A program made the translations under genes and the position numbers. Source: Alphaproteobacteria bacterium (GTDB lineage Bacteria > Pseudomonadota > Alphaproteobacteria > UBA828). Taken from it: a stretch of DNA of 64,000 bases. Of the stretch, positions 19,960-52,771 are shown one piece after another (position 1 is the stretch's first letter; each line of letters starts with the position of its first letter). Under the pieces are notes generated by a model. That model saw only the letters and a program-made list of their open reading frames with translations. It made no database searches and had not been told where the DNA came from. The stretch lies in contig CBDCRW010000007.1 in NCBI GenBank assembly GCA_965221125.1, positions 512,001-576,000 of the forward strand. The letters are read 5' to 3'.

Positions 19960-19988
19960 TTGACGGCAGCCGACAGAAGTTCGATAGT
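19960..19988 (+). promoter_or_regulatory. Sigma70-like promoter for structured RNA copy 1
   Basis: TTGACG-N17-GATAGT. Predicted start (~19994) coincides with the 5' end of the RNA closing stem. Confidence 0.55.
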
Positions 19989-19993
19989 ATAGG

Positions 19994-20130
19994 TGCCAGT
20001 ATCTTTCGGGCATCCCGCTGAGTCGGGTCGCCCGCTGAATAGAACAGCCTGATTCCGGGTCACGGTAGCTCCTTGGCCCCAGGTGAATAGGCGGGGAGTT
20101 TCTCTTAAAATTTCCTGAGAGATACTGGCA
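19994..20130 (+). ncRNA. Unidentified structured RNA / leader, copy 1
   Basis: 17-bp closing stem (19994-20010 with 20114-20130, two G-U pairs), CCCG/CGGG hairpin, CCCGCU/GGCGGG stem, GAAUAGAACA/GAAUA internal loop, GG-UAGCU-CC apical loop. Same architecture at 52019-52144. Confidence 0.75.
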
Positions 20131-20187
20131 AGGCCCGACGCCAGGTCGGGCCAATGCCACTATACCGAGCGGGATGGAGGAACTAAA

Positions 20188-20700
20188 ATGCGAACCCCTA
20201 AAAAAGTCTCAGCGGCCGTCTTGTCAGCAGCGGCCCTCGGCCTTGCCGTGATGGCATGCCAGCCGCAAGGCATGCCTGCCGCGACCGACGCGACGGAAGC
20301 CGAAGTCGAGACCGCGCCCAGTGCTGAAGCCTCGGCTACCGCCGAATCTGCCGGAGTAATGACCGCAGCCGAGATCGCCGATCTATTCGCCGGAAACACC
20401 ATTATTGGTGTTCTGGACGCGTGGAAACTGCGCTGGGCCGAGTTCTTTTCCCCTGACGGAACCTCGAAGGCATTGCTGAGGTTCGAGGGCCAGGCGGATA
20501 TGCGGATTGTCGGGAAATACTACGCAAACGATCAGGACCAATTCTGTACTTTTTACCCGGAGCTGCCCGATCAGAAAGAGTTCTGCCATGGTGTGGTGCC
20601 GTTGGGTGATGGAACGTACCAGCAGGTCTATGCTGACGGCACAAGAGGCGGAATTTACATGCAAATTCTGGAAGGCGAGCAACTCGAAGCGCTCGAATAA
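20188..20700 (+). CDS. Hypothetical lipoprotein (possibly DUF995-like)
   Basis: Basic N-terminus, hydrophobic stretch and VMAC lipobox-like site, GGAGG RBS. Core MTAAEI..LF.GNT...FFSPDG...C......C. Lower GC. Confidence 0.75.
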   Translation: MRTPKKVSAAVLSAAALGLAVMACQPQGMPAATDATEAEVETAPSAEASATAESAGVMTAAEIADLFAGNTIIGVLDAWKLRWAEFFSPDGTSKALLRFEGQADMRIVGKYYANDQDQFCTFYPELPDQKEFCHGVVPLGDGTYQQVYADGTRGGIYMQILEGEQLEALE

Positions 20701-50159: not shown

Positions 50160-50642
50160 CCGGCATCCCCGCCCGTTCTTAACCCTTTGCTTTTACGTTA
50201 TTTTCGTAGTTTTGGGTTCCTTCTGCCGCTGACCTTATCGCTCTCGCGTATATGACTTTGACGCGCCTCCGCCTCGCGGTGCCCTCGACTCCATCCATCC
50301 CCGCCGTGCCGGACGTGCCCGCGCTGCCCACGGTTCCCGAAATCTCCGCAGAGGCCGCTGAGCGCCCCGTCAGCGCCGCTGCCGATTCTCCCACCCCTCG
50401 CCCTTCAGCCGTCGAGCGCGCCTCTCCACCCGGTTTTCGTCGCGTCCGCGTCCGCGACTAGGCCCCGCGTCCCCATTCTGCCGTCCCCCTGACGGTCCGC
50501 AAATTTCTTTGCGGACCATCTGCAACTTTCCCCGTCCTGATCATTATATGCCTGGGTGCAGTCGGCTCTCCCTGCGCTCGCCCCTCCGCTCTCCCCGCGC
50601 GATTACCGCCAAACTTCTCAGCGGTGGCAGCGAATCCGGGGC

Positions 50643-51614
50643 ATGCCCCAAGCTGCACCCGGCAAGTTCTATCGTCAGGGCATCTCCTGGCCCGAACTGT
50701 TCGCCCGCTTCCCCGACGACGCGGCCGCCGAGGCGTGGTTCGAGGAGCAACGTTGGGGTACTCCTGGTCAGCCGTCCTACTGCCCGCTTTGTGGTGACAC
50801 GGAGCGCCTCCGCCCCACCCCCAACCGCCGCCCGCTCCCCTACTGGTGTGGCGCTTGTCGGTCGTACTTCTCCGTCCGCACCAACACCGTCATGCACCGT
50901 TCCAAGCTCCCGCTCCAGAAATGGGTCATCGCCATCTACCTCTGGGCCACCTCGCTCAAGGGCGTGTCCTCGATGAAGCTCCACCGCGACCTCGGCATTA
51001 CGCAGAAGTCCGCGTGGTTCCTCGCCCAGCGGCTGCGTGCCGCTTGGTCCGCCCCTGCCGACGCGCCGCCCCCGCCGCCCTTGTTCGCCGGTCCCGTGGA
51101 GGTTGACGAGACCTACCTCGGCGGCAAAGAGCGGAACAAACACGCCAAGAAGAAGTTGCGCGCCGGGCGGGGTGCCGTCGGCAAGACCCCCGTTGTTGGT
51201 GCGCTCGATCGCACCGCCAACCAGATCGCTCTCGCCGTGCTGCCCTCGACCGACCGTCCCACCCTGCACGGCTTTATCGAGCAGCACGTGCAACCGGGTG
51301 CCCAAGTGTATACCGACGAGGCCAGCGCCTATCAGCGCATGCCGTTCCCGCACGACGCTGTGAACCACTCGGTCGGCGAGTACGTCCGCGACCAAGCGCA
51401 CACCAACGGCATCGAGTCCTTCTGGGCGACCTTGAAGCGCGCCTACGCCGGCACCTACCACCACATCTCCCCCGAGCACCTCCACCGCTACGTCGGCGAG
51501 TTCGCCGCCCGCCACAACCTCCGCACCCAAGATACCGAGGCTATGATGGCCGAGGCGGTGGCGCAGATGATCGGCAAGCGCCTCACCTACAAAGAACTGA
51601 TCGGGAAGAACTGA
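50643..51614 (+). CDS. IS1595-family transposase
   Basis: Zinc ribbon CPLC...CGAC, FSVRT.T.M..S..PL.KW, KG.SS..L.R.L.I.QKSAW, VEVDETY, YTDE, HTNGIESFW..LKR, KRLTY.EL. Confidence 0.96.
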   Translation: MPQAAPGKFYRQGISWPELFARFPDDAAAEAWFEEQRWGTPGQPSYCPLCGDTERLRPTPNRRPLPYWCGACRSYFSVRTNTVMHRSKLPLQKWVIAIYLWATSLKGVSSMKLHRDLGITQKSAWFLAQRLRAAWSAPADAPPPPPLFAGPVEVDETYLGGKERNKHAKKKLRAGRGAVGKTPVVGALDRTANQIALAVLPSTDRPTLHGFIEQHVQPGAQVYTDEASAYQRMPFPHDAVNHSVGEYVRDQAHTNGIESFWATLKRAYAGTYHHISPEHLHRYVGEFAARHNLRTQDTEAMMAEAVAQMIGKRLTYKELIGKN

Positions 51615-51635
51615 CTTTATGCGAAGATTATTCCT

Positions 51636-51662
51636 TGTGGAAAACTTGTATTGTGTGGATAA
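51636..51662. promoter_or_regulatory. Two DnaA-box-like 9-mers downstream of the transposase
   Basis: TGTGGAAAA (one mismatch) and TGTGGATAA (perfect reverse complement of TTATCCACA), 18 bp apart, each followed by CTTG. Confidence 0.55.
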
Positions 51663-51752
51663 CTTGAATCGACTATCGTTGGGTTTTTAACGGTTTGTTA
51701 GACTCGAGTTTGGTCGAAGGTGTCGGTGGGGCCGCGAGGCTCGTCCGGTGTT

Positions 51753-51843
51753 TGGCGGAGGAGGTGGGATTCGAACCCACGGTACGGCACAGCCGTACAC
51801 CGGTTGCCTAGACCGGCGCCTTCGACCGCTCAGCCACTCCTCC
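51753..51843 (-). tRNA. tRNA with a serine-type body and atypical anticodon loop (AGG anticodon, C37)
   Basis: GGAGGAG/CUCCUCC acceptor stem, G73, encoded CCA, D-loop GG, CCGGU-CUAGGCA-ACCGG anticodon arm, 7-bp variable arm GUACGGC/GCCGUAC, GUGGG-UUCGAAU-CCCAC T arm. 91 nt. Confidence 0.93.
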
Positions 51844-51885: not shown

Positions 51886-51982
51886 CGCAACAGGTCGCCG
51901 GATACGCCAGATGTAGCAAGCCGGCGCCGGCTTGCTACATCCCGCCTGCCTCGTGAGGCGCATCAGTTCCAGCATCTAGCGA

Positions 51983-52011
51983 TTGCGCCCGCATTGTGCC
52001 TCCGTTACGCT
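51983..52011 (+). promoter_or_regulatory. Sigma70-like promoter for structured RNA copy 2
   Basis: TTGCGC-N17-TACGCT. Predicted start (~52019) coincides with the first base of the closing stem. Confidence 0.55.
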
Positions 52012-52018
52012 CTCCCTC

Positions 52019-52144
52019 GTCAATGACACGCGGAGCCCGCACGTCGGGTCGCCCGCCGAATACAACAGCCGCACGACCCGGCACGGGGTAGCTCCCCGCG
52101 CTTGGCGAATAGGCGGGACTTCACGCTATCCGTGTGTCGTTGAC
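52019..52144 (+). ncRNA. Unidentified structured RNA / leader, copy 2
   Basis: 16-bp closing stem (52019-52034 with 52129-52144, two G-U pairs), CCCG/CGGG hairpin, CCCGCC/GGCGGG stem, GAAUACAACA/GAAUA internal loop, GG-UAGCU-CC apical loop. Confidence 0.75.
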
Positions 52145-52213
52145 ACGGCCCGGCACCCGCCGGGCCGCGAGCCGCCCTATATCGGTCGGTTCCAGCGGGC
52201 AGCGGAGGGCGAC

Positions 52214-52588
52214 ATGTGGAAAGCCATTACTCTCAGTCTAGTTCTGGCCTTGAGTTCGGCTGCGCCGACCTGGGCGCAGGATTCTGGCAACGAATTCGTC
52301 ATCACTGTGCCAACAGACTTGGATACGCGCTTGTTCTTTGTGGCGGAGACGCTATCTCCCCATAGGGTGCAAGTGGGGTCGCCGTACAATTATGGTTCGA
52401 TGTACGAAGGTGAGCGGCAACGGCTGGTTCAATTCGCTCGCTGGGGGTGTCAACTCTATGGTCGGGATCGTCTTGCTTATGTCGGAATACAAACCAATGA
52501 TCAACGTTGTGACGAAATGGGTGCGGCCGCCGCCGAGCGCGATCCTCATTGCTACCACATCCACACCTTCGTGTGCGTTGAGCGGTGA
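52214..52588 (+). CDS. Hypothetical secreted cysteine-containing protein (IS passenger)
   Basis: MWKAITLSLVLALSSAAPTWA-QD signal peptide, GGAGGG RBS, four Cys, lower GC, 124 aa. Confidence 0.75.
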   Translation: MWKAITLSLVLALSSAAPTWAQDSGNEFVITVPTDLDTRLFFVAETLSPHRVQVGSPYNYGSMYEGERQRLVQFARWGCQLYGRDRLAYVGIQTNDQRCDEMGAAAAERDPHCYHIHTFVCVER

Positions 52589-52771
52589 GTCGAGTCTCTC
52601 GGCTCGACCTGATGCGCGCCAGTGTTGATGGCGGCGCGTCTAGGAGTTGAACCTAAAACGCCCTGGGGGACGTTCGCTCGGATTGTCAATCCGGCCTCCG
52701 GACCGCCGGAGATGGCGCGCCGCCATCTCCGGGAACCCACAATGTAATTCGCAGATCGCTCTGCTTCGCGC

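Follow-up and report, generated by a model that had tools for sequence, protein, structure and literature searches.

An sRNA-Xcc1-like family of structured RNA elements upstream of genes for predicted exported proteins

The described RNA that comes closest to the element reported here is sRNA-Xcc1, a small RNA (sRNA; Rfam family RF02221), which is described as a free, trans-acting sRNA of ~88 nucleotides (nt) with mapped ends and a Northern band of ~100 nt (PMC2996969). Xylella carries seven copies and homologues were detected as separate RNAs (PMC12189769), and other copies stand upstream of symE in integron cassettes (bioRxiv 2025.06.18.660453) or, in APSE phages, before an ORF6N gene (bioRxiv 2020.03.17.996009). 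The present analysis concerns two elements, copy A (19990–20155) and copy B (52013–52170), both on the + strand of a 64,000-nt stretch of an alphaproteobacterial genome (assembly GCA_965221125.1, contig CBDCRW010000007.1, positions 512,001–576,000; this whole stretch is referred to as the window), which belong to a larger RNA family. The family is a conserved folded RNA on the + strand, with strong covariation in three stems, P0, P1 and P2. We conclude from sequence comparison that the window element is a distinct branch of the Xcc1 kind, clamped by P0 and extended in P2, that lies outside RF02221 as defined. No description of the element was found in the literature searched, a limited body, and the leader family is apparently undescribed so far.

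Structure, covariation and kinship with sRNA-Xcc1

The preliminary description of this DNA had reported both copies on the + strand, together with a common core, GUCGGGUCGCCCGCYGAAUASAACAGCC ... GGUAGCUCC ... GYGAAUAGGCGGG, and rereading the sequence found copies and core so placed. It had also reported a closing stem in each: P0 spans 16 base pairs (bp) in copy B and 17 bp in copy A, the two stems are unrelated in sequence, and both pair throughout, all non-Watson–Crick pairs being G·U on the + strand. The order of parts put forward there, running from the promoter to an open reading frame (ORF) for an exported protein, holds in both copies, except that the CTATA motif included in it occurs in only 3 of 118 copies of the family. 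The parts of the two copies, with the Shine–Dalgarno sequence (SD) and the ORF that follow, are listed here.

Copy B
51983–52011, +: promoter-like site, TTGCGC, 17-nt spacer, TACGCT, read from the sequence and from the promoter statistics of the family
52019–52034, +: 5′ arm of P0, partner 52129–52144, 16 bp including two G·U
52036–52039 and 52045–52048, +: small hairpin Pa, CCCG with CGGG
52043–52051, +: 5′ strand of the predicted long-range helix (GUCGGGUCG), overlapping the 3′ half of Pa and aligned to the outer stem of RF02221
52052–52117, +: P1–P2 arm
52052–52057 and 52112–52117, +: P1, CCCGCC with GGCGGG
52058–52067, +: internal loop GAAUACAACA, opposite GAAUA at 52107–52111
52068–52106, +: P2, with apical loop UAGCU at 52089–52093
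52129–52144, +: 3′ arm of P0
52146–52154, +: 3′ strand of the predicted long-range helix (CGGCCCGGC), overlapping P3 (region 52146–52166)
52147–52154 and 52159–52166, +: hairpin P3, GGCCCGGC, loop, GCCGGGCC
52204–52209, +: SD, GGAGGG
52214–52588, +: ORF B, 124 amino acids (aa), signal-peptide-like N-terminus, no Pfam family

Copy A
19960–19965 and 19985–19990, +: promoter-like site, TTGACG and the −10-like TAGTAT
19994–20010, +: 5′ arm of P0, partner 20114–20130, 17 bp including two or three G·U
20014–20017 and 20024–20027, +: Pa, CCCG with CGGG
20022–20030, +: 5′ strand of the predicted long-range helix (GUCGGGUCG)
20031–20095, +: P1–P2 arm
20031–20036 and 20090–20095, +: P1, CCCGCU with GGCGGG
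20037–20046, +: internal loop GAAUAGAACA, opposite GAAUA at 20085–20089; apical loop UAGCU at 20066–20070
20114–20130, +: 3′ arm of P0
20131–20139, +: 3′ strand of the predicted long-range helix (AGGCCCGAC), overlapping P3 (20132–20152)
20176–20181, +: SD, GGAGGA
20188–20700, +: ORF A, 170 aa, lipobox-like LAVMAC, no Pfam family

In the family as a whole P0 comprises 14–17 bp, and its arms differ in sequence between copies, yet covary. When 84 sequences from different phyla were aligned, 90.9% of the cells paired under the nested structure and 30 of the 38 pairs had changed on both sides (one pair of P1, for example, is CG in 37 sequences, UA in 32 and UG in 14); none of 500 shuffles reached any of the five observed values, and pairing fell to 37–51% when the partners were slid by 1–3 columns. 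This alignment was fitted by a covariance model, R1, built from four copies and containing P0, and is hence biased toward the structure of R1. RNAalifold, run on a structure-naive MAFFT alignment (85 of 100 sequences), nonetheless recovers P1 and the base of P2. The top ranks of mutual information belong to pairs of P0, P1 and P2, with P0 first, and they add four outer P0 pairs that are absent from R1. Pa and P3 display no convincing covariation in the 84 sequences. Across 118 distinct sequences the modelled pairs include 457 G·U or U·G against 67 A·C or C·A, a ratio of 7 to 1 that favours a transcribed RNA of the + strand. The proposal of a functional, structured + strand RNA family made in the preliminary description is thus borne out by the covariation and the G·U excess. 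The stems have been rewritten many times, and the near-invariant parts are unpaired: GAAUAsAACA opposite GAAUA, plus ACGGCCCGGC; the GAAUA internal loop is invariant or nearly so in the 73 sequences aligned. Kissing dimers, suggested earlier from the self-complementary apical loop, are unsupported, since a simple pattern search finds UAGCU in 61 of the 118 copies and, in 17, UCGCU, which is not self-complementary.

The preliminary description could match the element to no known class, and here it has to be corrected. At the gathering level, Rfam 15 gave no family match for the element, the only two hits in the window being of tRNA type, so that a scan named beforehand as a check does not remove the novelty; at E ≤10 nothing relevant appeared beyond RF02221. 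In the genome of the window RF02221 matched copy B at 33.7 bits and a second copy at 19.8 bits (cut-off 53), copy A had no match at E ≤10, and 5 of 20 related loci scored 28.2–31.8 bits. The alignment on copy B covers the outer helix, P1, the AAUACAA.A/GAAUA loop and the ACC tail, and places a 30-nt insertion in P2. For the reciprocal comparison, ten true Xcc1 elements (63–77 bits) were taken from an even sample of Pseudomonadota, 24 of whose 151 genomes pass the RF02221 cut-off, with up to six matches per genome. R1 found no match at E ≤10 on these ten loci, and a second model, R2, was therefore built from the new family alone with P0 omitted. Its top match fell on the coordinates and strand of Xcc1 in nine of the ten loci (13–33 bits), with E <0.05 in eight. 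These sub-threshold and reciprocal matches indicate a core common to the two.

More specifically, the new family and sRNA-Xcc1 share (i) an outer helix of ~9 bp with GYCGGG at its start and CCCGRC at its end, next to which comes ACC; (ii) the P1 hairpin with a loop (G)AAUACAA.A opposite GAAUA; and (iii) a multi-copy occurrence shortly upstream of an SD and an ORF. They differ in that every copy of the new family falls below the gathering score of 53; in that the new family alone has a P0 of 14–17 bp, which crosses the outer helix, and a P2 lengthened by an insertion of ~30 nt; and in that it lacks the second inner hairpin, in whose place a variable, poorly aligned linker and the 3′ arm of P0 are found. 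It is also longer (~155 nt, compared with ~87 nt, 85–90, for Xcc1), its predicted transcription start lies ~25 nt upstream of the outer helix, and it precedes genes for exported or surface proteins, whereas Xcc1 precedes mobile-element genes. Note that in nine of the ten loci the Xcc1 element lies 24–109 nt upstream of an SD-preceded ORF (Bro-N/P22 antirepressor-like in three of the eight scanned), a position which suggests a cis-acting role for sRNA-Xcc1.

A long-range helix and a predicted pseudoknot

The nested stems of the fold drawn in the preliminary description are supported, but a fold drawn as nested throughout leaves out a long-range helix of 9 bp, in competition with Pa and with the GGCCCG hairpin. 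In this helix the segment GYCGGGYYN just 5′ of P1 pairs with N′GGCCCGGC just 3′ of P0, so that it crosses P0 and shares its strands with the 3′ half of Pa and the 5′ half of P3. Its partners can pair in 97.9% of the cells. The ninth pair, which is absent from R1, covaries (among 95 cells GC 66, AU 9, UA 6, GU 2 and other 12), with AU and UA scattered over several phyla. RNAalifold picks the whole helix on the MAFFT alignment mentioned above. Copy A carries the only U–A of the family at the second pair and a G·A at the ninth. A tenth candidate pair (columns 56–246) was dropped, 60 of its 92 cells being unpaired.

In 92 sequences, a nested structure with the long-range helix and without P0 was a median of 18.9 kcal/mol worse than the minimum free energy (MFE) fold and never was that fold. 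This makes it improbable that the element works as a simple two-state switch in which P0 opens, and the helix was rejected as a nested switch alternative to P0. Because the nested alternative is so costly, we think that the long-range helix would instead coexist with P0 as a pseudoknot. The 3′ arm of P0 and the 3′ strand of the long-range helix are 0–2 nt apart, and from this spacing we infer a geometry in which the 5′ end of the transcript, P1 and the long-range helix would be brought together at one junction.

Promoter, downstream genes and possible modes of action

A promoter-like sequence, TTGNNN-N16–18-YANNNT, precedes the element at a fixed distance in 68 of the 106 copies that could be tested, whereas of as many control windows placed 100 nt further upstream one contains it, and the canonical TTGAC occurs in 42 of these copies and in no control. 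The fixed distance puts the predicted transcription start within a few nt of the start of P0. On the other side, 99 of 118 copies are followed by an SD and a same-strand ORF, at a median of 21 nt past the model match. The N-terminus of the encoded protein is hydrophobic in 75 of these 99 ORFs and a lipobox is present in 39, compared with 111 and 19, respectively, of 638 control ORFs (at least 200 aa, same loci, spurious frames included), both calls resting on a simple hydropathy and lipobox rule of our own. The statement that the leader stands in front of exported-protein genes, made at first from the two window copies, thus extends to the family. ORFs outside this pattern encode mostly family-25 glycosyltransferases or zinc-ribbon membrane proteins. 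The downstream proteins are mutually unrelated and have a cellular location in common, not a pathway: a Pfam search of 77 of the 95 candidates found no common family and left most without any, the families met being Glyco_transf_25 (4), Rhodanese (4), TbpB-like (4), leucine-rich repeats (3), zinc ribbons (3), subtilase (2) and CsgG (2). No shared element was detected 3′ of the ORFs in an all-against-all blastn of 77 flanks, which returned two orthologous pairs and chance matches only. In the window, the transcription units with copies A and B look monocistronic.

RNA libraries offer some evidence on continuity. A 172-nt metatranscriptome contig (X18) equals window positions 20024–20195 without any difference and reaches the start codon of ORF A, and other RNA-library contigs cover ORF A at 92–96% likeness. 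The first contig shows that the leader core, P3 and the SD occur as one continuous stretch in an RNA library, and falls short of proving transcription; its start at 20024 is not read as a transcript end, and no weight is given to the uncovered bins on either side of copy A in the RNA runs. As a separate observation, the leader of copy B is free of stop codons throughout in the frame of ORF B (201 aa when read from a TTG; window 51983–52588, +); this frame is probably due to chance, because copy A has nothing comparable.

We consider it fairly probable that the element is a cis-acting leader with sequence-specific regulation. It would be a 5′ leader of ~155 nt, transcribed from its own σ70-type promoter at the start of a monocistronic mRNA whose product would be exported, lipid-anchored or envelope-related. 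In this reading a pseudoknotted three-helix junction, made up by P0 and the long-range helix, would bury the 5′ end of the mRNA and keep hold of the segment that immediately precedes the SD. The invariant GAAUA loop might be read by a partner, either a small molecule or a widely conserved protein, that would shift the competition of the long-range helix with the Pa and P3 hairpins, and such a shift could set the lifetime of the mRNA or the initiation of translation, so that surface proteins would be co-regulated.

Several observations weigh against a regulatory leader of this kind. Neither a U-tract nor another terminator follows P3, and consistent sequestration of the SD by a helix was not found in the predicted folds: in 94 sequences, examined without a control set, the SD core has a median unpaired probability of 0.26, and pairing of the SD with the leader exceeds 0.5 in 33%. 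The downstream genes point to neither a ligand nor a binding protein. The long-range helix has one covarying pair only, its eight other pairs being invariant or U/C opposite G, compatible with pairing but uninformative, and its nested form without P0 carries the energetic penalty given above. The RNA evidence consists of assembled contigs, possibly derived from DNA, in which no transcript ends were seen. Finally, the Xcc1 relative is described as a free trans-acting sRNA (PMC2996969).

A more specific form of the cis-acting leader, which we put forward tentatively and regard as unlikely, is a habitat-linked riboswitch, in which the P0-clamped fold would bind a metabolite or second messenger typical of the sponge holobiont and would have been passed among at least seven phyla. 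The element resembles riboswitches in its conserved multi-helix fold in a 5′ untranslated region, its invariant unpaired nucleotides, its mutually exclusive helices near the SD and its occasional tandems; it differs from them in that neither a terminator nor a consistent SD-sequestering helix was found and in that its gene set is common in location, not in pathway. A small-molecule riboswitch would explain function in seven phyla without a dedicated protein. If it were so, unrelated symbionts would switch surface lipoproteins, leucine-rich-repeat proteins and lipopolysaccharide glycosyltransferases in response to the host, and sRNA-Xcc1 in plant- and insect-associated mobile elements would be a set of cis sensors and not trans-acting sRNAs.

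Instead of sensing anything, the element could be a passive module, that is a portable promoter, 5′ stabilizer and insulator that shields the 5′ end of the mRNA and secures expression independent of context. P0 begins close to the predicted +1, the element is very stable in its MFE fold, which includes P0, and the promoter–leader unit stands before unrelated genes in at least seven phyla; reuse of a promoter before unrelated genes has been described for putative mobile promoters (PMC3575422). In that system, as here, the same promoter-bearing sequence precedes unrelated genes, distant taxa included, but the unit reused here is mainly a covarying RNA downstream of the promoter. What makes a passive role unlikely is the invariance of GAAUAsAACA, GAAUA and ACGGCCCGGC although the stems have turned over, which a mere clamp would not need, and the fact that Pa, P3 and the long-range helix, which compete with one another for strands, are conserved as well.

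It is very unlikely that the element is a free sRNA, released by termination or processing and acting in trans, with the ORF being incidental. The core common to the family and sRNA-Xcc1 speaks for it, as do the ~100-nt band with mapped ends of the latter (PMC2996969) and the separate RNAs seen for the Xylella homologues (PMC12189769). Against it stand the missing terminator after P3, the SD and ORF that follow 99 of 118 copies with a median gap of 21 nt, the RNA-library contig that spans the core through the SD, and the strong bias toward exported proteins, which is unexpected for an incidental ORF.

The put RNAs of phage HK022 act on the transcribing polymerase, and by analogy a promoter-proximal RNA might act on polymerase here, by processive antitermination or anti-silencing, so that foreign genes are read through. 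Its position directly after the promoter, its occurrence across at least seven phyla, where it would have to work, and the mobile-element genes that follow its Xcc1 relatives (three Bro-N/P22 antirepressor-like ORFs in the eight scanned) would fit; we hold this to be less likely still, because the units in the window look monocistronic and nothing in the data bears on polymerase.

Hardly plausible is an element acting at the DNA level, such as a miniature inverted-repeat transposable element (MITE), a repetitive extragenic palindrome (REP) or an attC-like repeat used by a recombinase or transposase and for which transcription is irrelevant: there are 1–14 copies per genome, across phyla, two of the five distinct copies in the genome of the window lie <2 kb from an IS1595-type sequence, and sRNA-Xcc1 is cassette-borne in one report (bioRxiv 2025.06.18.660453), but the P0 arms covary and are not conserved in sequence, G·U exceeds A·C 7 to 1, the orientation and the distances to promoter and ORF are fixed, 77 loci have no conserved 3′ element, and neither viral contigs nor plasmids matched. 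Unlike an integron attC site, which is 3′ of a promoterless cassette ORF, the element is 5′ of an ORF and has its own promoter, and unlike a MITE or REP it has no conserved terminal inverted repeats and lies on the same strand as the ORF in 99 of 118 cases. A scattered DNA repeat or MITE, the outcome against which the preliminary description had set its reading, is accordingly not what the covarying arms and fixed placement describe.

To the few large bacterial RNAs that are unexplained, the family adds a structured RNA with more than 100 examples, with strong covariation and probably with a pseudoknot. For 15 years sRNA-Xcc1 has been annotated as a trans-acting sRNA linked to virulence; it would now become a single branch within a broader family, whose members are promoter-proximal leaders. 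The new branch would mark surface and secreted proteins, eukaryote-like repeat proteins included, in uncultured bacteria of at least seven phyla with a habitat in common. It may thereby give a handle on the co-regulation of the symbiont cell surface and on the spread of a regulatory RNA between phyla; being short and self-contained, the element is testable in a laboratory strain.

Distribution of the family and the neighbourhood of copy B

BLAST with copy B as query found six places in its own genome, itself included, and R1 found seven (E ≤0.1), five of them at 139–152 bits, two of which are an identical duplicate, and the other two at 34.9 and 21.1 bits. R1 matched 23 of the 61 related genomes searched, its own counted, so that the claim of a family beyond chance resemblance holds. 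Within the genus, 19 of 20 other genomes were positive, with 1–14 matches per genome; in other genera of the same family none of 16 genomes was, and among more distant genera three were. An even sample of 150 other Pseudomonadota gave only two weak matches (33.3 and 24.8 bits).

A degenerate pattern made from the conserved core found at least 92 stretches in a species-representative collection, and 80 of these were taken as loci. Among the matches listed, R1 confirms 79 of the 80 loci, with 84 matches in total; all 79 records are titled metagenome-assembled genomes, and the single unconfirmed locus is the only record from a cultured isolate. By record names, the 84 matches cover at least seven phyla: Pseudomonadota (44), Acidobacteriota (15), Gemmatimonadota (12), Binatota (6), Chloroflexota (4), Verrucomicrobiota (2) and Nitrospirota (1). 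Altogether the set comprises at least 118 distinct copies, a lower bound in which related sequences share kinship and are not independent, with an element length of 150–170 nt, typically ~155 nt. The core pattern had no match in viral contigs, nor did the element in PLSDB plasmids by blastn.

Runs labelled 'sponge metagenome' contain 23–29% of the words sampled from a 9-kb stretch of the window, and one of them (X6) aligns to that stretch at 88–99% likeness. The isolate prefixes of many named bins are probably those of sponge studies. The leader family is restricted to a few lineages, many of which are metagenome bins from samples presumably linked to sponges. In a tree of 100 copies, 10 of 97 inner branches are well supported, and the taxon labels are clustered (38 changes, compared with a shuffled mean of 61.4), yet also mixed; with such a tree, neither a donor nor a direction of transfer can be named.

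Some loci hold two leader copies (L047, L114, L048, L082 and L059); in L047 they are in tandem, at 1320–1483 and 1514–1700, with 30 nt between them. In another locus, from a genome of the same genus, a leader copy is immediately preceded by a match to a group II intron domain (L027, 1351–1432; 38.6 bits, cut-off 40).

Copy B had been thought to lie inside an insertion sequence (IS). The IS1595-family element concerned extends from 50271 to 51740, between 25-nt inverted repeats (50271–50295 and 51716–51740), and encodes a transposase (ORF 50556–51614; DDE_Tnp_IS1595, 1.3e-43). These bounds place copy B outside it, ~270 nt past its right end, with a tRNA gene between. At full length the IS1595-type element is single-copy in the genome, and a fragment 69% identical to it lies ~1.5 kb from another leader copy (L007/L008).

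Two tRNA-type genes bracket the leader–ORF unit of copy B. The first (51753–51843, −) is a type-II tRNA gene with a long variable arm, an encoded CCA end and the anticodon AGG, called tRNA-Pro(agg) of 91 nt by ARAGORN and scoring 50.7 bits with the Rfam tRNA model; its body is Ser/Leu-like, at odds with the anticodon, and four places in the genome are 78–83% alike. The second (52632–52722, −) matches the Rfam tRNA-Sec model (52.9 bits, cut-off 47); its acceptor stem has 9 bp and its T stem 4 bp, its anticodon loop is UUGACAA, with anticodon GAC and not UCA, and it received no ARAGORN call. It recalls the allo-tRNAs with 8/4 or 9/3 stems described in PMC5389517. Between the first of these genes and the promoter of copy B lies a perfect 32-nt palindrome (51910–51941; 16 + 16, no loop), which, judged by its sequence, is probably a bidirectional terminator or insulator.

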